From positions 32,001-96,000 of the forward strand of contig JBBRLQ010000009.1 in NCBI GenBank assembly GCA_038231275.1: a DNA stretch of 64,000 bases, read 5' to 3'. The stretch comes from Polyangiales bacterium (GTDB lineage: Bacteria; Myxococcota_A; Polyangia; Polyangiales; Polyangiaceae). The position numbers and the translations under genes are program-made. Of this stretch, positions 1-13,912 are shown piece after piece. Numbering within the stretch: position 1 is the stretch's first letter; each line of letters starts with the position of its first letter. The notes beneath the pieces are model-generated. The model ran no database searches. It worked only from the letters and a program-made list of their open reading frames with translations, and was not told where the DNA came from.

Positions 1-1770
1 ACGATCGACGAGCTCATCGCCGCCTGCGACGTCGTGCTCACCGGCCGCTACGCCGTGCACCACCAAGAGCAGATGTACATCGAGCCGCAAGGCATGATCG
101 CGCACTGGGAGGAGGAGGGCGGACCGACCCCGGGGGTCCACGTTACGGGCTCCCTCCAATGCCCCTTCTACGTGCACAAGGCGATGAAGCGCGCGTTCGG
201 GCTCGAGGGCGACAAGGTCCACATCGGCCAAGCGGTGACCGGCGGCGGCTTCGGAGGAAAAGAGGAGTACCCCAGCATCGTCGCCGCGCACGCCGCGCTC
301 CTCTCCAAGGTGGCCGGCAAGCCGGTCCGCATGATCTACGGCCGCAAAGAAGACATCGAGGCCACGACCAAGCGCCACCCGGCGCGCGTCGAGATCACGA
401 CGGGATGCACCAAGACCGGCGAGCTCGTCGCGCTGAAGATCGAGTGCGCTATGGACGGCGGCGCGTACGTCACGCTCACGCCAGTGGTCCTCTCGCGCGG
501 CATCCTCCACGCGGCCGGCGCCTACAAGTGGAAGCACGCGCGCGTGCACGGCTGGGCCGTCGCCACCAACACGCCGCCGAACGGCGCCTTCCGGGGCTTC
601 GGCGCGCCGCAGACGATCTGGGCGATCGAGCGCCACATGGACCGCCTCGCCGAAAAGCTCGGAAGAGAGCCGCTCGCGCTGCGCCAGCAGAACGTCCTCG
701 GCATCGGCTCGGTGACCGTCACCGGCCAGACGCTCACCGAGAGCGTCGGCGTCGTCGAGTGCATCGAGAAGGCCACCAAGGCCAGCGACTATTTCGTGAA
801 ACGTGCACACTACAATGAACCGTCGCCGCCCCACGCGCGCACGCGCCGCGGCATCGGGGCCGCCGTGTTCATGCATGGCGCGGGCTTCACCGGCAGCGGC
901 GAGCGGCGCCTCAAGGGGAAGGTTCAGGTCGACCTCGAGCAGGGCGGCGTCCTCCGCGTTCGCAGCGCGTCGACCGACATCGGGCAGGGCACCGAGACGA
1001 TCTTCCGCCAGATCGCCGCCGACGCCGCGGAGCTCCCGTTCGACTCCATCGTCGTCGAGACACCCAACACCTCGAACGTCCCCGACTCGGGCCCCACCGT
1101 CGCGTCGCGCACCGTCATGGTCGTCGGCTCCATCGTCGGCAAGGCCGCAAAGCAAGTCGCCGATCGCGTCCGCGGGACCGGCGCCGGCGACTTCGCGAAG
1201 CTCGCCGACGCGCTCCTCGCGAAGGAGAAGACCGTCAGCGCCCTCGTCGAGTACGAGCCGCCCCTCAAGATCCAGTTCAACGACGAGACGTACCGCGGCG
1301 ACGCGTACCCTTGCTACGCGTGGGCGTGCGACATCGCGGAGGTCGAGGTCGATCTCGACACCTTCGAGACCAAGGTGCTCGGGTTTTGGGCCGCGCAGGA
1401 CATCGGCAAGGCCATCCACCCGCTGATGTGCGCCGGCCAGGTCGAAGGCGGCACGCTGCAGGCCATTGGCTGGGCGCTCTACGAGAACGTCGTCTGGAAG
1501 GACGGGCACATCATGAACCCGCGCATGACCAACTACGTGATCCCAACCAGCAAGGACGCGCCGCCGTTCACGACGTTCCTCGTCGAGCACCCGTTCTCGG
1601 GCGGACCGAGCGGCGCAAAGGGGGTCGGTGAGCTCCCGATGGATGGCGGGGCGCCCGCGATCGCGGCCGCCGTCGAGCAGGCGATACGTGCAAAGTGCAA
1701 CGATCTGCCGCTTCTCCCCGAGGATCTGTTCCGCGCCGTACGCGCGGCCCGCGAAGGAGCGCGATCGTGA
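1..1770 (+). CDS. Xanthine dehydrogenase family molybdopterin-binding subunit (5' end truncated by the window)
   Basis: Frame is open from position 1. Molybdenum-hydroxylase motifs GGGFGGKE, AFRGFG, DIGQG, GQVEGG and AKGVGE are present. It is followed by FeS and FAD subunit genes and purine catabolism genes. Confidence 0.9.
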   Translation, partial: TIDELIAACDVVLTGRYAVHHQEQMYIEPQGMIAHWEEEGGPTPGVHVTGSLQCPFYVHKAMKRAFGLEGDKVHIGQAVTGGGFGGKEEYPSIVAAHAALLSKVAGKPVRMIYGRKEDIEATTKRHPARVEITTGCTKTGELVALKIECAMDGGAYVTLTPVVLSRGILHAAGAYKWKHARVHGWAVATNTPPNGAFRGFGAPQTIWAIERHMDRLAEKLGREPLALRQQNVLGIGSVTVTGQTLTESVGVVECIEKATKASDYFVKRAHYNEPSPPHARTRRGIGAAVFMHGAGFTGSGERRLKGKVQVDLEQGGVLRVRSASTDIGQGTETIFRQIAADAAELPFDSIVVETPNTSNVPDSGPTVASRTVMVVGSIVGKAAKQVADRVRGTGAGDFAKLADALLAKEKTVSALVEYEPPLKIQFNDETYRGDAYPCYAWACDIAEVEVDLDTFETKVLGFWAAQDIGKAIHPLMCAGQVEGGTLQAIGWALYENVVWKDGHIMNPRMTNYVIPTSKDAPPFTTFLVEHPFSGGPSGAKGVGELPMDGGAPAIAAAVEQAIRAKCNDLPLLPEDLFRAVRAAREGARS

Positions 1771-2243
1771 TCCGCTTCAAGGTCAACGGCGCCGCGCGCG
1801 AGACCGACGCGCCGCCCCTGGCGCGATTGCTCGATGTTCTTCGCGTACCCCTCGGGCTCACCGGGACCAAGGAGGGCTGCGGAGAAGGGGAGTGCGGCGC
1901 GTGCTCGGTCCTCCTCGACGGCGTGCCGGTCAACTCGTGCCTCGTCGCCGTTGGGCAGTGCGAAGGCCGAGACATCGTCACCGTCGAAGGGCTCGCCCAT
2001 GGAGAAGAGCTGACACCGCTGCAGCGCGCGTTCGTCGAGGATGGCGGCGCGCAGTGCGGCATCTGCACGCCGGGCATGCTCGTCGCCGCGGAGGCGCTCC
2101 TGCGCCGGAACACCCGACCCACCGATGACGACATCCGCGACGCCATCGCCGGCAACCTATGCCGGTGCACGGGCTACCAGCGCATCGTCGACTCGATCCA
2201 GGCCGCCGCCGCCGCCGTTCGCGCGAAAGGGAGCCGAGCATGA
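1767..2243 (+). CDS. Xanthine dehydrogenase family (2Fe-2S)-binding subunit
   Basis: GTG start overlaps the upstream TGA (GTGA). Motifs GTKEGCGEGECGAC, QCGICTPG and NLCRCTGY. Confidence 0.93.
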   Translation: MIRFKVNGAARETDAPPLARLLDVLRVPLGLTGTKEGCGEGECGACSVLLDGVPVNSCLVAVGQCEGRDIVTVEGLAHGEELTPLQRAFVEDGGAQCGICTPGMLVAAEALLRRNTRPTDDDIRDAIAGNLCRCTGYQRIVDSIQAAAAAVRAKGSRA

Positions 2244-3139
2244 GCGCCTATGCCCCCGCCGGCCTCGAGCGCACGGAGATGGCGCGTCCCAAGACGATCG
2301 TCGAAGCGTGCAGGATCCTCGCGCAGGCCGTTCGGGCAAAAAAGACCGCGAGCCTGCTCGCCGGCGGCACAGACGTCATCGTCGATCGCCACCTGATGCC
2401 CGTGGCGAAGGCGCACGCGATCGATTTGATCGTCGACGTCACCGGAGTCGAGGAGCTCGTGCGCATCTCCGAACGCGACGTCGGCGGCGAGCGGCACCTC
2501 GTCTTCGGAGGCGGCGTCACCTACTGGCAGCTCCGCACCGACGCGCGCGTCACGGGCACGATCCCCATGCTCGACGCGATGGCCAAAGACGTCGGCGCCG
2601 TGCAGATCCAGACGCGCGGCACACTCGCCGGAAACATCGCGACCGCGTCGCCCGCGGCCGATGGCGTGCCGGCGCTGATGGCGCTCGACGGCAAGGTCAC
2701 GCTCGTCAAGGACGGCGGCGCGCGCACGGTGCCGCTCGACCAGTTCTTCCTCGCGTACCGGAAGACCGTGCTCGCGCCCGACGAGCTCATCGCTGAGATC
2801 GCCGTTCGCGTTCCAAAGGACGGCGCGCGCGTTCGGTGGCGAAAGGTCGGCACCCGCCTCGCGCAGGCGATCAGCAAAGTGGCGCTCGCGAGCGTCGTCG
2901 AAGAGGAGGGCGGCGTCATCACGCGCGCGCGCTTCGGGATGGCGTCGGTCGCCGCAGTCCCGCACCCGCTCGCCGGCGTGCGCGCCCTCGTCGAAGGAAA
3001 ATCCACCAAGAGCCTCGACCGAGCCGCCATCGACGCGGCGATCGACCGAGAAATCAAGCCGATCGACGACGTGCGCAGCACCGGGCCGTACCGGCTCCAC
3101 GTGGCCAAGGCGCTCGTGTGGCGGGCGCTCGCTCCATGA
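2240..3139 (+). CDS. Xanthine dehydrogenase family FAD-binding subunit
   Basis: ATGA overlap with the upstream gene. Motifs LAGGTD, QIQTRGTLAGNIATASPAAD and PIDDVRST..YR. Confidence 0.9.
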   Translation: MSAYAPAGLERTEMARPKTIVEACRILAQAVRAKKTASLLAGGTDVIVDRHLMPVAKAHAIDLIVDVTGVEELVRISERDVGGERHLVFGGGVTYWQLRTDARVTGTIPMLDAMAKDVGAVQIQTRGTLAGNIATASPAADGVPALMALDGKVTLVKDGGARTVPLDQFFLAYRKTVLAPDELIAEIAVRVPKDGARVRWRKVGTRLAQAISKVALASVVEEEGGVITRARFGMASVAAVPHPLAGVRALVEGKSTKSLDRAAIDAAIDREIKPIDDVRSTGPYRLHVAKALVWRALAP

Positions 3140-4494
3140 TCTTCGTCTCGCGCCGCGTCGCGCTCCCGGACGGCGTGCGCCCCGCGTCGGTGCACGTGAC
3201 GGGCGGCACGATCGTGAGCGTCCGCGGCCCTCTCGACCTCACGCCCGGCGAACCGGTCACGGACGTCGGCGAGGCGGTGCTCTTGCCGGGCCTCGTCGAC
3301 ACTCACGTCCACATCAACGATCCGGGCCGCGCCACGTGGGAGGGATTCGACACCGCTACGCGCGCGGCGGCGGCAGGCGGCGTCACTACGCTCGTCGACA
3401 TGCCGCTCAACAGCATCCCGCCGACGACGACCCTCGCCGGCCTCGAGGCCAAGGCGAGCGCCGCCGACGGGCGCCTCATGGTCGACGTCGGCTTCTGCGC
3501 CGGGCTCGTCCCGAGCAGCGTCGGCCAGCTCCGCGCGATGTGGGACGCTGGCGCGATCGCGTTCAAGTGCTTCCTCGCCGACTCCGGCGTCCCCGAGTTC
3601 TCGCACGTCGAAGAGGCGGATCTGGCCGCTGGCATGCGCGAGCTCGCCGGCTTCGGCGCGCCGCTGCTCGTCCACGCCGAGCTCCCGGGCCCCCTCGCCC
3701 GCGCGGCCGAGGCGCAAGCGAAGGCCGGCGCGATCGATCCGCGCACCTACGCCGCGTGGCTCGACTCCCGCCCGCGCGAAGCCGAGGACCTCGCGATCGA
3801 TCTCGTTATCCGCCTGTCGAAGGACACCGGCGCGCGCGCCCACGTCGTGCACCTCTCGAGCTCCACCGCGCTCGCCGCGATAAGGCGTGCCAAGGACGCG
3901 CACGCGCCGTTCAGCGCCGAGACGTGCCCGCACTACCTCACGTTCGCGGCCGAAGAGATCCCAGAGGGCGCCACCGAGTACAAGTGCGCGCCGCCGATCC
4001 GCGAAGCCGAGAACCGCGATCGGCTCTGGGACGCCCTCCGCGAGCGCCTCCTCGATCAAGTCGTCACCGATCACTCGCCGTCGACGGCGGAGCTGAAATG
4101 CTGCGGCTCCGGCGATTTCGTCGCCGCGTGGGGAGGCATCGCCTCGCTCCAGCTCGGACTCGCCGCGGTCTGGACGAGCGCGCGCGCGCGCGGCGCCACG
4201 ATCGCAGACGTCGCCGATTGGATGTGCGCGGCGCCGGCCCGCCTCGTCGGCCTCTACGGCGCGAAGGGCTGCATCGCAGCGGGTGCGTCGGCCGATTTCG
4301 CGGTCTGGGATCCGGACGCCGACTTCGCGGTCGACGCGCTCCGCCTCGAGCACAAGAACAAGGTGACGCCCTACCACGGGCGCACGCTGCGCGGACGCGT
4401 CCTCCAGACGTGGCTGCGCGGCGAGAAGATCTTCGACCGCGGGACCTTCCCGGCGTCTCCACGAGGACGCTGGCTGAGACGAGGAGCAGCATGA
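3136..4494 (+). CDS. allB: Allantoinase (amidohydrolase superfamily)
   Basis: ATGA overlap. Motifs PGLVDTHVHINDPGR..WEGF, DMPLNSIP, ETCPHYL, KCAPPIR, TDHSP and WGGIASLQ. Confidence 0.93.
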   Translation: MIFVSRRVALPDGVRPASVHVTGGTIVSVRGPLDLTPGEPVTDVGEAVLLPGLVDTHVHINDPGRATWEGFDTATRAAAAGGVTTLVDMPLNSIPPTTTLAGLEAKASAADGRLMVDVGFCAGLVPSSVGQLRAMWDAGAIAFKCFLADSGVPEFSHVEEADLAAGMRELAGFGAPLLVHAELPGPLARAAEAQAKAGAIDPRTYAAWLDSRPREAEDLAIDLVIRLSKDTGARAHVVHLSSSTALAAIRRAKDAHAPFSAETCPHYLTFAAEEIPEGATEYKCAPPIREAENRDRLWDALRERLLDQVVTDHSPSTAELKCCGSGDFVAAWGGIASLQLGLAAVWTSARARGATIADVADWMCAAPARLVGLYGAKGCIAAGASADFAVWDPDADFAVDALRLEHKNKVTPYHGRTLRGRVLQTWLRGEKIFDRGTFPASPRGRWLRRGAA

Positions 4495-5978
4495 GCGACT
4501 TCACCGAGCTGGTCGATCTGGCCGCCGAGCGCCTGGGCGCCGCGGCGATCGCGACGAACGACGATTTCTTCGCCTCGAAGGACAACCTCCTCAAGGCCGC
4601 GCCCGCGGTCTTCATCGACGGCAAGTACACCGATCGCGGAAAATGGATGGACGGCTGGGAGTCGCGCCGAAGGCGTACGCCCGGCCACGACTGGTGCATC
4701 GTGCGCCTCGGCGCGCCGGGCGTCGTGCACGGCGTCGTCGTCGACACCGCGTTCTTTCGTGGCAATTTCCCCGAGGAATGCTCGATTGAAGCGTGCAGTG
4801 TGCATGCAAACGCCGACGCCGCGTTCCTCACGTCGGGCGATGTGACGTGGTTCGAGCTCCTCCCGAGGACGACGCTGCAGGGCGACACGAAGAACGCGTT
4901 CGAGATCGCCGCGCGGCAACGCGTCACGCACCTGCGCCTCAACATCTTCCCCGACGGCGGCGTCGCGCGCCTGCGCGTGCACGGGCGGGTCATGCCCGAC
5001 GTGCGCTGGATGGGGAAGGCCGGCGCCGAGGTCGACCTCGCGAGCGTCGAGAACGGCGGCGTCGTCACGTCGTGCAACGACATGTTCTTCGGCTCGCGCC
5101 ACAACCTCGTCATGCCCGGGCGCGGCGTGAACATGGGCGACGGCTGGGAGACGAAGCGCAGCCGCCGCGAGGGACCTGACTGGGTCATCGTGAAGCTCGC
5201 CGCGCTCGGCGTGCTCTCGCGCGTCGAGGTCGACACCGCGCACTTCAAAGGGAACTTCCCCGAGAGCTGCGCGCTTCAAGCGCGGCGCGGCGATGGGCCG
5301 TGGCAGGACGTGCTCCTGCGCACCAAGCTGCAAGCGCACACGCGTCACTTCTACGACGCCGAGCTCCTCGCGCACGATCCCGCGACCGAGGTGCGCCTGC
5401 AAATTTTCCCCGACGGAGGCGTCAGCCGGCTCCGCCTCTGGGGGACGGTCACGACCGAGGGGCGCGAGGCGTTCGGCATCGAGCGGCTGAACCTGCTCTC
5501 TCCCTCCGACGCCGAGCGCGAGCTCCTCGCGTGCTGCGGCGCGCCGTCGTGGGCGAGAACGATGGTCGCCGCGCGCCCGTTCGCGAGCCTCTCTTTGGCG
5601 AAGAGCACCGCGCGTGAAGTTTGGAGCACCCTCACGAAGAGCCACTGGCTCGAGGCGTTCCGTGCGCATCCGCGCATTGGCGAGAAGAAGGCCGAGAAGG
5701 AACAAGGCGCGACCGCCAAGCAATGGTCGACCGAGGAGCAGTCGAAGGCCGCGACCGCGAGCGCCGAGACGATCGCCGCCCTCGAGGCCACGAACCGCGC
5801 GTACGAGGCCAAATTCGGCCACATCTACATCGTGTGCGCCACCGGCAAGACCGCCGACGAGATGCTGGCGCTCGCGAAGGCGCGCCTGGGGAACGACGCG
5901 GCGACCGAGCTCGCGGTCGCCGCCGAGGAGCAGGCCAAGATCACGGATTTGCGGCTCGAAAGATTGGTGAGGGGATGA
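4491..5978 (+). CDS. alc: Allantoicase fused to C-terminal OHCU decarboxylase (UraD) domain
   Basis: GAGGAG RBS and ATGA overlap. Two allantoicase repeats (MDGWESRRRR / MGDGWETKRSR, DTAFFRGNFP / DTAHFKGNFP, IFPDGGVARLR). From about 5475 the UraD motifs follow: EAFRAHPRIGE, EQS, YEAKFGHIYIVCATGK, EQAKITDLRL. Confidence 0.9.
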   Translation: MSDFTELVDLAAERLGAAAIATNDDFFASKDNLLKAAPAVFIDGKYTDRGKWMDGWESRRRRTPGHDWCIVRLGAPGVVHGVVVDTAFFRGNFPEECSIEACSVHANADAAFLTSGDVTWFELLPRTTLQGDTKNAFEIAARQRVTHLRLNIFPDGGVARLRVHGRVMPDVRWMGKAGAEVDLASVENGGVVTSCNDMFFGSRHNLVMPGRGVNMGDGWETKRSRREGPDWVIVKLAALGVLSRVEVDTAHFKGNFPESCALQARRGDGPWQDVLLRTKLQAHTRHFYDAELLAHDPATEVRLQIFPDGGVSRLRLWGTVTTEGREAFGIERLNLLSPSDAERELLACCGAPSWARTMVAARPFASLSLAKSTAREVWSTLTKSHWLEAFRAHPRIGEKKAEKEQGATAKQWSTEEQSKAATASAETIAALEATNRAYEAKFGHIYIVCATGKTADEMLALAKARLGNDAATELAVAAEEQAKITDLRLERLVRG

Positions 5979-6310
5979 GCATCACGACCCACGTCCTCGA
6001 TACGTCGCGCGGCAAGCCCGCCGCAGGCGTCGCGCTGCAATTGAGCTTGAGCGAAGGCGGCACCTTCCGCCTCCTCGGGCGCGGGATGACCGACGCGGAC
6101 GGGCGGTGCCGCGATCTGCTCACACCCGGGCCGCTCGCGCTCGGTGTCTACCGGGTGACGTTCGACGTCGCCGCGTACTTCGCAGCGCAGTCGATCGAGA
6201 CCTTCTACCCGACGGTGAACATCCACTTCGACGTGAAGGACGCGGGCGGTCACTACCACGTGCCGCTCCTCTTGAGCCCGTGGGGATATTCGACCTACCG
6301 GGGGAGCTGA
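5975..6310 (+). CDS. uraH: 5-hydroxyisourate hydrolase (transthyretin-like)
   Basis: N-terminal ITTHVLDTSRGKPA, DGR, HYHVPLLLSPWGYSTYRGS with the diagnostic C-terminal YRGS. Confidence 0.96.
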   Translation: MSITTHVLDTSRGKPAAGVALQLSLSEGGTFRLLGRGMTDADGRCRDLLTPGPLALGVYRVTFDVAAYFAAQSIETFYPTVNIHFDVKDAGGHYHVPLLLSPWGYSTYRGS

Positions 6311-7394: not shown

Positions 7395-8932
7395 CTACTT
7401 TTTGTGCGGCTTGCGCGGCCGCTTGCGCACCGGTTTGCCCGGCTTCTTGGGCGGCTTCGGGTGCGGCGCGACCTTCGGTGCGCCCGCGTCGGTGGCCACG
7501 CGGTGACCGGCGTCGACGATCTCTTCCTCGCCCGCGTCTTCGTCGTCTTCGTCGTCTCCGCCGTCGTCGTCTCCGCCGTCGTCGAAGTCCATGGCCGCCA
7601 AAGGGGACGCATCCTCCATGGCCGTCGCGTCGATTGAGCCGCCCTCGTCGGCCGCGTCCGCGACGGGCGGTCGCTCGTCACTCTGCGCGAGCGTCGTCGA
7701 CGCGACGGACGCGGGCCCCTTCGTCTCATAGAACGTCTCGTACAGCTCGCGCGCGAAGATGGCCCCGTAGAGGAGGCAGGTCACCAGCGGAATGCTCGAA
7801 CGCCGCGCCCGCCGCAGAGGCACGGACTCCGATGCCGACGCCGACGCCGACGCCGACTCCGACTCCGACTCCGCCGCCGACCCCGCCGGCTCCGACGCCG
7901 GTTCCGGGGGCTTCGTCCGCGGGGGCGGCGGAGGCGGCGGCACGACCGGCTCGAGATCCCCCTCGGACAAGTGCTGCGTCGGCTCCACCGGGGGCGCGGC
8001 GGGGAGCGGCACCGAGATCGGCGCGAACGCGGGCACCGTCGCCGCCTCGCCGGCGTACTCGACGAGCACCTTCTCCACGTCGGCGCGCATCGCCGCCGCG
8101 TCCGGATAGCGATCCTCTCGCCGGAACGCGAGCGCGCGATCGATCACGCGCGCGAAGCGCTCCGACACGCTCGGCGCGACGTCGCGGATCGGCGGCGCGG
8201 GGAGCTTGGCCATCTTCGTGACGACCTCGACCGGGTTGTCGCCCTCGTGGATGCGCTTGCCGGTGAGGAGGCGGAAGCCGGTCGCGCCGACCGCGAACAA
8301 GTCGGTGCGCCCGTCGATCTCCTCGGTGCGCCCCGCGGCCTGCTCGGGAGACATGTACGATGGGGTCCCGAGCGCGAGGCCCGCGCCGGTCACGCGCTCG
8401 CCCTCCATGAGTCGCGCGAGGCCGAAATCGAGCACTTTCACGCGGAGCGCGCCGTCCTCGTCACGCGCGAGGAAGAGGTTCTCGGGCTTCAGATCGCGGT
8501 GGACCACGCCGTGCGCGTGCGCGGCCTCGAGCACCTCGAGCACGGCGCGCGCGATTGTCAGAAATTCGCGCTCCGTCAACGGAGGCGCACGCTCCGCGCG
8601 ATCCTGGAGCGACTCGCCGTCGAGCAGCTCCATCACGAGGTAGGCGGTGCCGTCGTCGGGGCCGCCGCTCACGATGTCGTCGTCGAGGACCTTCACCGCG
8701 CCGCGATGCTCGACGCGGTTTGCGGCGTACCCCTCGCGAAGGAAGCGTTCGCGCACCTGCGAGATCCGCGCGAGGTTCGAATGGAGCAGCTTCACCGCCG
8801 CGCGGGCGCCGTTGCGATGACGCCCGGCGTACACCGCCGCCATGCCGCCCACGCCGATGAGGCGCTCGAGCGTCCACTTGTCGTTCAGGACGTCGCCGAC
8901 GCGCGCCTGGGCCCGGACCTCCGCGTCGTCGC

Positions 8933-8936
<4 letters not shown>
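7395..8936 (-). CDS. Hanks-type Ser/Thr protein kinase with Pro-rich linker and possible C-terminal TM segment
   Basis: IGVGGMAAVY, AAVKLL, HRDLKPEN, DFG, GTPSYMSPEQ, DLFAVG. The proposed TTG start overlaps the upstream TGA; the start position is uncertain. Confidence 0.9.
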
Positions 8937-9463
<527 letters not shown>

Positions 9464-9507: not shown

Positions 9508-11124
9508 TTATTTCCCGGGCAGCGTGAGCTCGACGGTCGCGGTGCCCTTGGCCTCGACCTTCAGCTTCTGCGTCACGCGACCGAAGATCTCGTGCCACGC
9601 GCCGATCTCGATCTCCCCGCCCGCCGGGACGTTCTCGAGCACGACCTCGCCCTTGTCGTTCGATACCGCGAAGTACGGGTGCGCGACGACGCCGACGAAG
9701 CCGCTCATCCACGGGTGAATGTCGCACTTCGCGGTGATCATGATCTCGGGCCGGCCGAACGTCTTGGTGAGCCGCGTGTCCTTCGTCGCCATCGCCTCGT
9801 TGAACGTCGCGTTGTCCTTCGCGATGGTGCGGACGTTGTGGAACACCGGATCGCTGTTCAAGAAGGTCACCCGCTGCCCGACCTGCGCGCCGACAACGTG
9901 CGGGCCGTACATGCACGCGCGCTGATCCACGGTCACCTCGTCGTTGGGCGGGCCGTCGCGCCACTCGCCGATGCCCTTGTCGATCCAGACGAACGCGTTC
10001 TGCACGAGCCCCGCCTTGACGAGCGCGGTGTTCGAGAGGAACGGCCCCTTTACGTCGGGCGCGCAGTTGCTCGGGATCGCCAGCTCCACCGGCGGCGGCA
10101 CCGCGCCTCCGAAGTGGACGATCGCGCGCACGGTCCCCACGCCGCCCGGCGATTTCGGCGCGAAGCTCGGGCCGCCCTTGCTCGGCGCGAACACGAGCGG
10201 CAGCGGCTTCCCTCCGCCGTCGCCGGACGACGCCGTCGACGTCAGGCCGGAGTTGGCGACGACGAGGACCGTGCCCAGGATCGCGAAGACGATCCCCGGC
10301 GAGCGATCGCCTGTGTTCTCGAAGTGCCGCGCCGCCGCGCCGACGATCATGAGGCCGCCGAGCACCGCCCACGCCCACGTGCTCCCGTACGTGGTCGGGA
10401 AGTGGTTCGAGAGCATGATGAACACGACGGGGTACGTCATGTAGTTGTTGTGACGGGAGCGCTGCTTGGCGCGCTTGCCGAGCGTCGCGTCGGGGGCGCG
10501 CCCCTCCTTCACCGCGGCGACGAGGCCGCGCTGCGCCGGGATGATGCGCATCGCGACGTTGCCCACCATCCACGTGCCCATCATCGCGCCGGTGTGGATG
10601 TACGCCGCGCGCCCGCTGAAGAAGCGCCCGAAGAACCACGCCGACCCGACCACGAACGCGAACGTGACGATGGCGCCGAAGAGCGTGCTCTTCGCGAGCG
10701 GCGAGAGCCAGAACAGATCGTAGAGGACCCACGACACCGCGATGGTGCCGAGCCCGATCGCCATGCCCACGGGCGCGGAGATGCTCGAGACGCTCGCGTC
10801 GAGGAGGAGCACGCCGCCGCCCGTGTAGTAGACGACGCCGAGGAGCACGACGCCCGTGATCCACGTGAAGTACGCCTCCCACTTGAACCAGTGGAGCGTC
10901 TTGGGCATCTCGCTCGGCGCGACGAGCTTCTTCTCGACCTGGTAGAAGCCGCCCGAGTGGACCATCCACAGCTCGCCTTCGACGCCCTTCTTCGGCGTCG
11001 CGGGTTTCTCGAGGTGGCTGTCGAGCCAGTTGAAGAAGATCGACGTTCCGATCCACATGATCCCCGCGAGGATGTGCATCCAGCGGACGATGAGGTGGAG
11101 CCATTCGCTGACGAGGGCGCCCAT
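9508..11124 (-). CDS. puuD: PuuD-family membrane urate oxidase domain fused to a C-terminal cupredoxin-like beta-sandwich domain
   Basis: N-terminal RWMHILAGIMWIGTSIFFNWLD, LWMVHSGGFY, LHWFKWEAYFTW, GRAAYIHTGAMMGTWMVGNV and RSRHNNYMTYPVVFIMLSNHFP match the PuuD/DUF989 membrane domain. The C-terminus has DQRACMYGPHV, NSDPVFHNV and KCDIHPWM. No CxxCH is present. Confidence 0.85.
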   Translation of the reverse strand: MGALVSEWLHLIVRWMHILAGIMWIGTSIFFNWLDSHLEKPATPKKGVEGELWMVHSGGFYQVEKKLVAPSEMPKTLHWFKWEAYFTWITGVVLLGVVYYTGGGVLLLDASVSSISAPVGMAIGLGTIAVSWVLYDLFWLSPLAKSTLFGAIVTFAFVVGSAWFFGRFFSGRAAYIHTGAMMGTWMVGNVAMRIIPAQRGLVAAVKEGRAPDATLGKRAKQRSRHNNYMTYPVVFIMLSNHFPTTYGSTWAWAVLGGLMIVGAAARHFENTGDRSPGIVFAILGTVLVVANSGLTSTASSGDGGGKPLPLVFAPSKGGPSFAPKSPGGVGTVRAIVHFGGAVPPPVELAIPSNCAPDVKGPFLSNTALVKAGLVQNAFVWIDKGIGEWRDGPPNDEVTVDQRACMYGPHVVGAQVGQRVTFLNSDPVFHNVRTIAKDNATFNEAMATKDTRLTKTFGRPEIMITAKCDIHPWMSGFVGVVAHPYFAVSNDKGEVVLENVPAGGEIEIGAWHEIFGRVTQKLKVEAKGTATVELTLPGK

Positions 11125-11215
11125 GTTCAGGCGGTAAAGTACTCGTTTTTCGGGGGTTTTAGCCACATTTCGCGCGGACCAAACCGCGGGCGCGACGTGC
11201 TGCTACACTGACACT

Positions 11216-11875
11216 GTGATCCGCGTCGTAGAGGTCGTCGTCGCCGTCGTGGTCACGTGTCTCGGCGCCTGCGCGTCGCACGACACCAAGCCGACCGCGC
11301 AAGGCGACAACGTCACGCCGCCCCCGTCGCCGCAGCTCCCTCAGACCGGCGACTACCCGCCAGGACCGTTCGGGTGGACCGTCGGCGACGTCTTCCCGCG
11401 CGTGCAAATGATGGGGTACGTCGGCGGGCAGAAGCCGTGGACGACCATCGACACGAAGGACTACTTCGATCCGCACGGCACGCGCGGCATCTACGGCGTC
11501 TACATCACGGTCAGCGCGCCGTGGTGCTCGGGCTGCAAGATCGAAGGGCAGGAGCTCCCCGCGCTCTGGACCGCGCAGTACAAGGCACGTGGCGCACGCA
11601 TCATCACGGCGCTCCTCCAGAACGACGCGTACGAACCGGCGTCGCAGAACACCGTCGACGCGTGGGTCGCGACCTACGCGACGCCGTACGACATCTCGGT
11701 CGGCGCCCTCTCGTCGATGCTCCCCCCCAAGACGCCCGGCAACGGCGTCGCGCTCCCCTACAACTACGCGGTCGATCCGCGGACGATGCGCATCGTCGGG
11801 ATCGACTCGGGCGACTACTTCCACGGCGACACGCTGCCGGCGCTCAACGTCGCGCTCGCCACCAACGGGAAATAG
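11216..11875 (+). CDS. Thioredoxin-fold (TlpA/redoxin-like) lipoprotein
   Basis: Lipobox LGAC, SAPWCSGC active-site-like motif, and ALPYNYAVDPRTMRI (cis-Pro region). GTG start. Confidence 0.7.
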   Translation: MIRVVEVVVAVVVTCLGACASHDTKPTAQGDNVTPPPSPQLPQTGDYPPGPFGWTVGDVFPRVQMMGYVGGQKPWTTIDTKDYFDPHGTRGIYGVYITVSAPWCSGCKIEGQELPALWTAQYKARGARIITALLQNDAYEPASQNTVDAWVATYATPYDISVGALSSMLPPKTPGNGVALPYNYAVDPRTMRIVGIDSGDYFHGDTLPALNVALATNGK

Positions 11876-11917: not shown

Positions 11918-13366
11918 TCAGCCGGGCGTGCCCTTGCGGCGGCTCTCCATGATCTTGGCGAACGATCGGCCGCGGATCTCGTCGAGCGTGAGGCCGGTGG
12001 CGAGCGCCTCTTCTTCCGTGATCGCGCCGCTGTTGATGCCGCGGAGGAAGAAGTTGAGGAGTCCTTGGCCGGTCGCAGCGTCGTCGAAGACGTCGCCGAC
12101 GAGCGTGGCCTGGGCCGCCTTCTGCACGAAATTCTTGAGGCGCTCGCTCGCCGCCGGCAGCCCCTCGAGGAAGAACGCGATGACCGTGGCGTAGCGCGTG
12201 GGGAGCTGCGCGGGGTGCAGATCCCAGCCCTGGTAGTAGCCCTGCTTGAGCGAATGCAGAACTTGCTCGGAGTGCAGGCGCCACGCCGAGTGAACGGCCG
12301 CGCGGTTCTCGACGATCTGTTGCGCGGTGAGCGCAGCGCCGTCCTTCGCGCGGTGCGGCGCGATGGGCATGATGTTCGTCGCGCCGTCGGAGAGCCACAC
12401 GCCGGTCGCGGCGAGCGTGACCTGCATGACGTGCTTCGCGAAATCGCAGGCCGGGTGCGTCATCCCTTGGTAGGCGGCGGTGATGCTGCAGCTCGCGGTG
12501 TAGTCGTACGTCCCGAAGTGCGCGGCGACGAGGCGGCCGCGGCTGGCGTCGAGCAGGTGAGAGGCAGTCGCCTCGCCGTCCGCGTCGAAGACCGACTGCG
12601 TCGTCTCGATCATGATCTCGAACTTGAGCGAGCCTTGCGGCAGCTTGAGCTGGCGCTCGAAGATGTCGAAGAGATCGGCGAGCGCGGTGACCTGCTCCGG
12701 GATGGTGACCTTGGGGAGCGTCACGACGAAGTTCTGCGGGAGGCCCTTGCCGGTGGCGATCAGCGTGGACAAGAACACGTCGACCGTGCGGAAGCTCCGC
12801 GCGCGCAGCTCCTCGGTGAACGGCTTGATGCGGATGCCGATGAACGGCGGCAGCGAATTTTGCGCGATGCCCTTCGCCACCTCTTCGGCGGCGGCGACGG
12901 CGTGACCGTCCTCTTCTGCGTCGGGGCGGTTGCCATAGCCGTCCTCGAAGTCGATGCGAAAATCCTCGACCGGCTCGTTGGCGAGCTTGGCGGTGACGCG
13001 CGAGTAGACCGCGTGAGCGAGCCACGCCGGTGCGTTGCCTGCGCGCGCGCCCGCCGGATCGTCCGTGACCTTGCGCACGAGCGCGCCGATCTCGGCAGGC
13101 GCGTCGGGCAAGCGGTCCCACCCGGGGAGATGAACGGCGCGCGCGAAGGTGACGAAGTCGGGTGCGAACTGCTCGAGCGAGCCAAGCGCCACCTTGCCGA
13201 GCTTCGCCGCCGCGTCCGACTTGAAGAGGTGCGCGCCGCCGTACACCGTGTGGACCGGCTGCCGGCGGCTGCTCTCGCCCGGGTAGCGCCGCGCGAACAT
13301 GACGTTCGCGTCCTTGAGGCGAGCGGTGAGGGCGTTGGTCGTCTCGGGGGTCAGCGTCGTCTTCAT
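11918..13366 (-). CDS. CitE / HpcH-HpaI aldolase superfamily protein (DUF6986-like)
   Basis: RQPVHTVYGGAHLF, RIDFEDGYG, TLPKV, IMIET, HFGTYDY, LSDGATN and GWDLHPAQL parallel the CitE-family motifs DLED, IET, FGxxD and GKxxIHPxQ. Confidence 0.75.
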   Translation of the reverse strand: MKTTLTPETTNALTARLKDANVMFARRYPGESSRRQPVHTVYGGAHLFKSDAAAKLGKVALGSLEQFAPDFVTFARAVHLPGWDRLPDAPAEIGALVRKVTDDPAGARAGNAPAWLAHAVYSRVTAKLANEPVEDFRIDFEDGYGNRPDAEEDGHAVAAAEEVAKGIAQNSLPPFIGIRIKPFTEELRARSFRTVDVFLSTLIATGKGLPQNFVVTLPKVTIPEQVTALADLFDIFERQLKLPQGSLKFEIMIETTQSVFDADGEATASHLLDASRGRLVAAHFGTYDYTASCSITAAYQGMTHPACDFAKHVMQVTLAATGVWLSDGATNIMPIAPHRAKDGAALTAQQIVENRAAVHSAWRLHSEQVLHSLKQGYYQGWDLHPAQLPTRYATVIAFFLEGLPAASERLKNFVQKAAQATLVGDVFDDAATGQGLLNFFLRGINSGAITEEEALATGLTLDEIRGRSFAKIMESRRKGTPG

Positions 13367-13432
13367 GTCTTGTTCCGCGTCGCACGTTAGCAGATGCAGC
13401 GGGCGCCGTGGCGCGTGTACCCTCCCCGGTCG

Positions 13433-13912
13433 ATGCCTCAGCCCCTCGTACGCTTCGGCCGATGGACGGTCCGCGCCGAGCCGGAGAAGACCCGCGCCGC
13501 GTACACCGGCCTGGTCGCGGCGTCGGAGCGCTGCGGGTGCAACATCTGCCGCAACTACCAGGCCGCGCGCGATCAGGTCTTCGGCGACGCGCCGCGCGCG
13601 CTCCTCGCCCAGCTCGGCATCGACGCCACGCGCGAGATCGAGGTCCTCCACACGCACCGAATCGCGCGCGGCCGCCACGCGTACCAGGGGTGGTTCCACC
13701 TGTTCGGCGGCCTCGAAGGGGGCAAGGACGCCTACGTCCCGCGCGGACCAGAGGCGTTCGCCGTCGAGCTCGAGGCGTGCGGCGAGTCGCTCTCGTTCGG
13801 CTTCACGACGCGCCTCGCGCTCGTGTCGAACGCGTGGGTCAACGCGCAGGTCATCCAGCTCGAGTTCGCGGCGATCGTCCCGTGGGTGCTCGAGATCGAC
13901 GAGCCCTCGTGA
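13433..13912 (+). CDS. Hypothetical protein with CxCxxC motif
   Basis: CGCNICRNY, YQGWFH and C-terminal IQLEF..IVPWVL. The stop overlaps the methyltransferase start (GTGA). An alternative start exists at 13394. Confidence 0.7.
   Translation: MPQPLVRFGRWTVRAEPEKTRAAYTGLVAASERCGCNICRNYQAARDQVFGDAPRALLAQLGIDATREIEVLHTHRIARGRHAYQGWFHLFGGLEGGKDAYVPRGPEAFAVELEACGESLSFGFTTRLALVSNAWVNAQVIQLEFAAIVPWVLEIDEPS

Follow-up and report, generated by a model that had tools for sequence, protein, structure and literature searches.

Our study examined a 64,000-nucleotide stretch of a Polyangiales genome (contig JBBRLQ010000009.1; hereafter the window, 69% G+C or a fraction of 0.69, with all positions given in window coordinates) and a minus-strand puuD-like gene within it, at 9508-11124. 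The product of this gene is probably a PuuD-family membrane urate oxidase whose C-terminal cytochrome c is replaced by a periplasmic type-1 copper cupredoxin, set in a small β-sandwich. The membrane domain is retained and, as judged from the sequence, a one-electron carrier of like kind occupies the same position; by analogy, the simplest and most likely reading is that a Cu(II)/Cu(I) couple would carry off the electrons of urate in place of Fe(III)/Fe(II). That the site binds copper, which way the electrons flow and what accepts them are proposed here from the sequence and from a structural model. A preliminary description of the same DNA had put forward this architecture; its observation was confirmed as a whole, and the interpretation as a urate oxidase with a copper domain appears, from sequence and modelling, to be supported on every element that could be checked.

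The puuD-like gene and its membrane domain

The minus-strand frame is open from 9508 to 11166, over 552 codons, when read from a GTG at 11166, which adds 14 residues to the protein that begins at the ATG at 11124. This ATG is the start both in an identical database protein (P0002, 538 residues) and in the consensus of 65 homologues, and the gene was therefore placed at 9508-11124 (538 codons plus a stop at 9508-9510), in agreement with the coordinates first assigned to it. The G+C fraction at third codon positions (GC3) is 0.95, against 0.69 for the window as a whole. A motif scan found no CxxCH anywhere in the 538 residues, which bears out the earlier statement that the protein has no haem c motif, and a single C..H..M arrangement, CDIHPWM, from residue 467. 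The protein contains three cysteines, at residues 354, 404 and 467.

The N-terminal part, previously described as roughly 290 residues of PuuD/DUF989 type, gave a full-length match to the Pfam family Urate_ox_N (PF06181) at residues 4-286, equivalent to residues 18-300 of the 552-residue form, scoring 369.5 bits (E 1.7e-110; cut-off 26.9 bits). This match spans positions 2-285 of the 295 in the profile and lies at 10267-11115 on the minus strand, where a profile search of the genome contigs also placed it. In a 51-row alignment, 26 membrane-domain positions were invariant across copper, cytochrome c and domain-less forms of PuuD; all 26 are present here, and they include R14, H17, H56, R172, K220, R222 and H241.

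An AlphaFold2 (AF2) model of the full-length protein, based on an alignment of 65 sequences (mean predicted local distance difference test score, pLDDT, 87.2; predicted template modelling score, pTM, 0.85), and a second model of residues 1-295 only (pLDDT 91.5) both contain eight helices, at 5-36, 82-100, 117-140, 147-168, 171-206, 213-239, 251-271 and 277-290, and a β-hairpin at 48-66 in the first cytoplasmic loop. Loops 1, 3, 5 and 7 together hold 10 lysines and arginines and the N-terminus plus loops 2, 4 and 6 hold 0, a bias that would place the C-terminal module in the periplasm. The positive-inside rule, and this rule only, thus predicts an N-out/C-out topology, and the periplasmic location suggested earlier agrees with the C-out arrangement given by the charge bias and the eight helices. 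Helix 8 is followed by a Ser/Gly/Pro-rich linker (residues 291-327; 10144-10254, minus strand), of which residues 295-309 were modelled with a pLDDT below 50.

The cupredoxin domain and its proposed copper site

Most of the C-terminal part was modelled with a pLDDT of about 90-97. Residues 395-481 (9682-9942, minus strand) were assigned to a cupredoxin domain, type-1 copper-like, by VIA, Foldseek, phmmer and residue invariance. VIA returned 305 chains at Z ≥8, and the best 50 of these 305 were cupredoxins or cupredoxin domains; the cupredoxin matches scored Z 11-13 at a sequence identity of only ~17-28%, and plastocyanin 7pcy aligned with model residues 396-480 over 84 of 98 residues, at Z 12.9 and a root-mean-square deviation of 1.5 Å. 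In a Foldseek search of the PDB the best 50 matches were again all cupredoxins or cupredoxin domains (E 3.8e-7 to 2e-4), among them the NirK cupredoxin domain, 5fc9, amicyanin, plastocyanin and pseudoazurin. Both searches uphold the earlier claim that a cupredoxin stands in the place of cytochrome c. When the last 222 residues were compared with PDB chains by phmmer, the first match was 5fc9, a Nitrosopumilus blue-copper domain (E 0.0011), followed by pseudoazurin and amicyanins (E 0.04-0.65), and a profile of the module reached 5fc9 at E 1.4e-4 and amicyanin at E 3e-3. By its modelled fold and its ligands, the domain is a divergent cupredoxin and not an orthologue of amicyanin, pseudoazurin or plastocyanin.

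The phmmer alignment with amicyanin pairs His429 (9838-9840), Cys467 (9724-9726), His470 (9715-9717) and Met473 (9706-9708; all minus strand) with H53, C92, H95 and M98, and on this alignment and their invariance these four residues are proposed as the copper ligands. The codons of the histidine in NSDPVFHNV (9838-9840) and of the CDIHPWM loop (9706-9726) lie exactly where the preliminary description had them, and its identification of a histidine plus CxxHxxM as a blue-copper ligand set is consistent with the amicyanin pairing. The four putative ligands, together with Cys354 (10063-10065, minus strand) and Cys404 (9913-9915, minus strand, inside the cupredoxin domain), are invariant in 65/65 aligned full-length fusions and in 42/42 rows of an alignment of stand-alone modules; Cys354 and Cys404 may form a disulfide. 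The C-x2-H-x-W-M loop was present in 134/134 module sequences, 132 of which also fit a stricter pattern with an upstream D..HN. At the level of sequence, the H/C/H/M motif exceeds chance.

The cupredoxin is flanked by the first part of the periplasmic module (residues 328-394; 9943-10143, minus strand), with AF2 strands at 329-338 and 378-383, and by a C-terminal β-sandwich of the CarboxypepD_reg type (residues 482-538; 9511-9681, minus strand), with strands at 485-487, 493-500, 504-511, 515-522 and 528-535. The model suggests that strands 329-338 and 378-383 complete the C-terminal β-sandwich, and that the cupredoxin is nested in, or packed on, a CarboxypepD_reg-like sandwich. A carboxypeptidase-regulatory-like part had been suggested before and was weakly borne out, as PF13620 (CarboxypepD_reg) is pre-computed on many homologues but scored below its threshold here (E 0.023; 15.5 bits against a cut-off of 32.3). 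The module profile also matched the β-sandwich modules of scaffoldin and SdrD (E 1.2e-4 to 1.2e-3), the scaffoldin match (E 1.2e-4) being made through the last 50 positions.

The same module occurs on its own in a family of 9,903 cluster representatives at E ≤0.001, 4,662 at 1e-10 and 325 at 1e-30. Its stand-alone members are mostly lipoproteins of about 250-320 residues (most of the best 150 have 250-300), and in those that were aligned a signal peptide is combined with a lipobox-like GCGG motif and a tether rich in Ala, Pro and Thr. They resemble the module of the puuD-like gene over ~210 shared residues, at 30-40% identity and with the same H, C, H, M and two Cys, and differ from it in that the signal peptide, lipobox and tether stand where the PuuD membrane domain sits here. 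These lipoproteins are labelled 'plastocyanin' by JGI and 'carboxypeptidase regulatory-like domain-containing protein' by NCBI, and in one Atlas cluster of module homologues PF00127 is recorded on 22% of members. Multi-copy module proteins were also seen: P0076 has one degenerate and one intact site, and P0148, of 3,178 residues, has 7 matched stretches.

Recurrence of the copper-type PuuD

When searched against databases, the C-terminal part matched 286 proteins, of which 120 were listed; 71 of the 120 matches listed, from independent sources, carry the fusion of PF06181 with the module. Among the matches listed, 16 rows bear the automatic JGI name 'uncharacterized membrane protein/plastocyanin' and 4 rows the NCBI name 'urate hydroxylase PuuD', the latter from metagenome-assembled genomes (MAGs) of Labilithrix, Myxococcales, Bacteriovoracia and Pseudomonadota. 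A survey of species representatives, taken as the best 80 loci, comprised 10 copper-type loci, 59 with CxxCH and 11 without a periplasmic domain (one of them cut by a contig end). The 10 copper-type representatives were nine Bdellovibrionota and one MAG labelled Acidobacteria.

Even sampling of the window's own phylum (301 genomes) found PF06181 in 125/301 genomes, with 67 full-length PuuD genes. Of these, 13/67 were copper-type and 54/67 had CxxCH, so that roughly every fifth full-length PuuD gene of the sample is of the copper type and the survey of PuuD C-terminal domains that had been suggested earlier shows a recurrent copper form. The N-terminal domain and the copper module were adjacent in 12/12 copper-type loci fetched from the phylum sample, besides the window's own. 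In the window's family, PuuD was present in 8/23 sampled genomes besides the window's genome, one with a copper-type gene (G215) and seven with cytochrome c.

Purine genes accompany many of these loci. A 5-hydroxyisourate (HIU) hydrolase gene lies directly downstream, with an allantoicase gene nearby, in 9/10 of the species-representative copper loci, and purine genes were present in the fetched range at 6/12 of the copper loci in the phylum sample.

The cytochrome c forms of PuuD are ~390-420 residues long, compared with 538 residues here, and further variety was seen among them. Di-haem forms of ~510-513 residues with two CxxCH motifs were found at L056, L095, L121, L124 and L125, and four of the 54 CxxCH forms in the phylum sample are of this ~510-residue, two-CxxCH type; L068 encodes a form of 731 residues with CxxCH at about residue 659. 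The di-haem and 731-residue forms represent more variety in the periplasmic part.

A third form of PuuD, of ~256-283 residues, stops after helix 7 and lacks any periplasmic redox domain (L052, L059, L064, L070, L073, L075, L080, L082, L083 and L074, together with L060, which is cut by the contig end). No cytochrome c or copper gene was found directly downstream of these domain-less genes in the same orientation. They are mostly from Acidobacteriota, and nine rows form one clade (support 100); HIU hydrolase is nearby in 8/11 of the loci and DUF6986 in 7/11. They differ from the four-helix short DUF989 proteins described in 2015, which sit outside purine clusters.

Exchange of copper and haem carriers

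Two genomes carry short DUF989 relatives beside separate carrier genes. In G222 (L140), a relative of ~260 residues (195-977) is followed by a separate gene for a copper-module lipoprotein (884-1756), and in G177 (L143) a short relative (1580-2467, minus strand) lies divergent beside a lipoprotein cytochrome c with the motif CIVCH (910-1536, plus strand). Both short relatives are without the hairpin loop that carries the invariant His56, and no purine genes were found near either, so their substrate is probably different. These split forms were therefore rejected as evidence for a urate function and bear on carrier interchangeability only. Because close relatives carry either type of domain, and because of the G222/G177 pair, copper and haem carriers appear to be equivalent for DUF989-type domains.

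A quick maximum-likelihood tree of N-terminal domains, with 102 rows (every third row of alignment A1 plus all 80 loci, including the cut L060), split the copper forms between two clades, one of Bdellovibrionota (9 rows, support 100) and one of 20 rows (support 94), with three strays besides. The tree needs 5 domain changes, and its supported branches force at least 2. A single copper clade was not rejected by the approximately unbiased (AU) test (p 0.143), and these sequences are compatible with one to several domain swaps.

The purine-degradation cluster and the host genome

The gene lies in a purine-degradation cluster, as had been proposed, and its neighbours were confirmed by Pfam and NCBIfam. 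Six genes run on the plus strand from the start of the window. Three are of xanthine-dehydrogenase type, namely a molybdenum-binding subunit (1-1770, cut by the window start; Pfam MoCoBD_1/2), a 2Fe-2S subunit (1695-2243; Fer2_2) and a flavin adenine dinucleotide (FAD) subunit (2159-3139; FAD_binding_5 and CO_deh_flav_C); their best NCBIfam models were pucD and XdhA, with a score below cut-off for the protein truncated by the window start. They are followed by allantoinase AllB (2836-4494; TIGR03178, 544 bits against a cut-off of 357.85) and by an allantoicase/OHCU-decarboxylase fusion in one frame (4500-5978), whose single 492-residue translation matches Pfam Allantoicase and OHCU_decarbox as well as TIGR02961 (422.9 bits) and TIGR03180 (171.2 bits), each over its cut-off. 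Since both halves match the single 521-position NCBIfam profile PRK13797, the fusion was assigned to that type. The sixth gene encodes 5-hydroxyisourate hydrolase (5981-6310; PF00576, E 9e-38; TIGR02962, 135.3 bits against a cut-off of 87.45), an enzyme that consumes the product of urate oxidation. Xanthine dehydrogenase, allantoinase, allantoicase/OHCU decarboxylase and HIU hydrolase are thus all found in the window within 9 kb, and urate oxidation is the one step from urate to ureidoglycolate for which the cluster offers no other candidate.

On the other side of the puuD-like gene, a minus-strand gene at 11918-13699 encodes a DUF6986 protein (PF22484, E 1.7e-185) with weak similarity to malate-synthase-like TIM barrels, and a DUF6986 homologue was found near puuD in 16/80 related loci. 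The DUF6986 protein, a repeated member of purine clusters, is a candidate for an unassigned step downstream of ureidoglycolate or glyoxylate.

The host genome (9.28 Mb in 164 contigs, 94% complete) has a single PF06181 match, which is the puuD-like gene, and no match to the classical uricase family PF01014 was found in it at that completeness. Missing cytochrome c biogenesis was rejected as the cause of the domain swap: with 3 matches to Cytochrom_C_asm, the genome is equipped to make c-type cytochromes.

Proposed function and alternative explanations

In the proposed mechanism, the neighbouring xanthine dehydrogenase would make urate in the cytoplasm, and the eight-helix Urate_ox_N domain would oxidize it at the cytoplasmic face. 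The 5-hydroxyisourate would pass to the adjacent HIU hydrolase, OHCU decarboxylase, allantoinase and allantoicase, and the electrons would cross to the periplasmic side to reduce Cu(II) held by His429, Cys467, His470 and Met473. The copper centre would then release single electrons to acceptors of the aerobic respiratory chain in the periplasm or the membrane, so that no H2O2 would be made.

Several results weigh against this assignment. Foldseek found no PDB relative of the residues 1-295 model at E ≤0.001, and in a wide VIA search with the membrane-domain model the top match, a designed helical protein at Z 8.4, was background only. Haem-b four-helix proteins, namely superoxide oxidase of E. 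coli (Z 7.5), Dcytb (Z 6.8) and cytochrome b561 (Z 6.8), scored at the VIA background level for helical bundles, and no cofactor or relative could be deduced from these matches for the membrane domain. The evidence for the cupredoxin fold comes from a predicted model, the Pfam cupredoxin models (Copper-bind and Cupredoxin_1) gave no match at E ≤1, and the NCBIfam models for amicyanin and pseudoazurin scored 14.2 and 13 bits against cut-offs near 110. One of the 10 species-representative copper loci is without the purine genes seen at the other nine, and at 6/12 of the phylum-sample copper loci, several of them on short contigs, no purine genes were found in the fetched range. No FAD-dependent urate hydroxylase of the HpxO/HpyO type was found among the window open reading frames (ORFs) scanned, a genome-wide search not having been made. 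The preliminary description had noted no other gene for a urate oxidase; this holds across the genome for PF01014 and among the window ORFs only for HpxO-like genes.

The incomplete purine context in the phylum sample, the scope of the HpxO/HpyO search and the short DUF989 relatives that, outside purine clusters, are paired with a copper module or a cytochrome c would all fit a DUF989-type membrane oxidoreductase with a copper domain whose substrate is not urate, urate being oxidized elsewhere by an unrecognized or FAD-dependent enzyme. We consider this unlikely, as the full-length Urate_ox_N match keeps all the residues that are invariant in purine-linked forms of PuuD, the gene sits in a cluster that is short of a urate oxidase alone, HIU hydrolase is encoded directly downstream at nine of the ten copper loci of other genomes, and no PF01014 uricase was found in the host genome.

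A similarly small probability attaches to the proposal that the cupredoxin-like module is not an electron exit, and that it instead brings electrons in, senses or stores copper, or has a structural or anchoring role. The direction of flow and the partner are themselves deduced, β-sandwiches of the type in which the module is embedded are usual in non-redox, surface-associated proteins, and the very large family of stand-alone modules has no assigned role. Against this, the module takes the exact place of cytochrome c, after helix 8 and a linker, its complete type-1 ligand set is invariant, and copper and haem forms substitute for one another among close relatives. A single-Cys C-x2-H-x2-M loop is the electron-transfer type of cupredoxin site, and the loop here is of this type.

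The last alternative, that the fusion arose as a chimera in assembly or from two genes run together by a frameshift, has nothing in its favour beyond the division of the genome into 164 contigs and is effectively refuted, because the fusion recurs across genomes (71 of the 120 listed database matches, 10 of the best 80 representative loci and all 12 fetched phylum-sample loci) and the frame is unbroken with its GC3 of 0.95.

Comparison with known systems and significance

In the 2015 report, A. fabrum required PuuD to degrade urate, a uricase of the cytosol could take its place, and PuuD, unlike that uricase, did not raise catalase (Doniselli 2015, PMC4562309). PuuD as defined there crosses the membrane by eight helices, its loops I-II and V-VI lying in the cytoplasm and its C-terminus outside, and has a C-terminal cytochrome c with an invariant CXXCH, called strictly conserved, and a distal Met; the authors deduced that electrons pass, with cytochrome c as mediator, from an active site on the cytoplasmic face to the periplasmic domain (PMC4562309). 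The protein described here is like the characterized PuuD in its eight helices, conserved residues, predicted N-out/C-out topology, and linker followed by a periplasmic one-electron redox domain. It is also alike in its purine-catabolic gene context and, by analogy, would be expected to convert urate to 5-hydroxyisourate without H2O2. It is unlike the characterized PuuD in that it has no CXXCH or cytochrome c and carries a ~210-residue cupredoxin module (His/Cys/His/Met) in a CarboxypepD_reg-like β-sandwich; it was therefore filed as a PuuD variant and not as a 'cytochrome c urate oxidase'.

With plastocyanin, amicyanin, pseudoazurin and 5fc9 the module shares the cupredoxin fold, a C-x2-H-x2-M loop of amicyanin length and a predicted periplasmic location. 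Whereas these blue-copper carriers are free soluble proteins, the module forms part of a membrane enzyme, is apparently nested in a second β-sandwich, and has two extra invariant cysteines, 354 and 404. Exchanges of haem and copper carriers are familiar from cytochrome c6 and plastocyanin, and from cytochrome c550 and pseudoazurin. As in these textbook swaps, a c-type cytochrome or a cupredoxin would serve the same electron-transfer step in different organisms; unlike them, the exchange concerns fused domains of one enzyme and not soluble carriers under copper-supply regulation in one cell.

No description of a copper-type PuuD was found in the literature searched, the supplements of the 2015 PuuD paper lying outside that search, and PMC12423496, considered as a possible prior description, was unrelated on checking. 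The suggestion that the architecture is possibly undescribed thus stands for the literature searched, but not for sequence databases, in which the form is common under automatic JGI and NCBI names. From its sequence distribution, copper-type PuuD is a widespread natural variant that has been automatically labelled in databases.

The frequency of the copper domain at the same position indicates that the periplasmic domain serves as an exchangeable outlet for single electrons and does not take part in the catalytic chemistry, which in turn supports the electron-transfer model of PuuD. To our knowledge, PuuD is the least understood urate oxidase, and the evidence on its mechanism is genetic only. 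The variant corrects annotation rules that expect CXXCH, and a type-1 copper signal would provide an optical and electron paramagnetic resonance (EPR) handle on urate-driven electron flow. A very large family of cupredoxin modules on tethers, still without a name, also comes into view. More tentatively, and with some doubt on our part, the module could be more than a single replacement and could mark a large group of periplasmic type-1 copper carriers yet to be named: cupredoxins embedded in a β-sandwich, mostly lipoproteins, with thousands of sequence clusters. Such carriers would be functionally interchangeable with c-type cytochromes in leading electrons out of DUF989-type membrane oxidoreductases. 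On that view, the recovery of purine nitrogen and carbon would be copper-dependent and independent of haem c in Myxococcota and Bdellovibrionota that carry this form, and the copper centre would be a spectroscopically visible reporter for the catalytic chemistry and the cofactor of the PuuD membrane domain.

Other open reading frames near the gene

Two lipoprotein-like products encoded next to the puuD-like gene were considered as copper or redox helpers and rejected as conserved partners, as neither had a homologue in the 80 related loci. The first, at 11216-11872 on the plus strand and divergent from puuD, has 219 residues, a hydrophobic N-terminus, a WCSGC motif and a weak match to AhpC-TSA (thioredoxin fold; E 0.0086). 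The second, at 8933-9463 on the minus strand, begins 44 nucleotides after puuD, in the downstream direction, and has a (Thr-Pro)n tract and a Cys-rich end. It overlaps a minus-strand ORF in a different frame, at 7395-9404, over positions 8933-9404, and over the repeat either frame may be the coding one. The product of this longer ORF would be a Ser/Thr kinase with an N-terminal extension of Asp-Pro/Asp-Ser repeats, the kinase domain beginning at residue 178.

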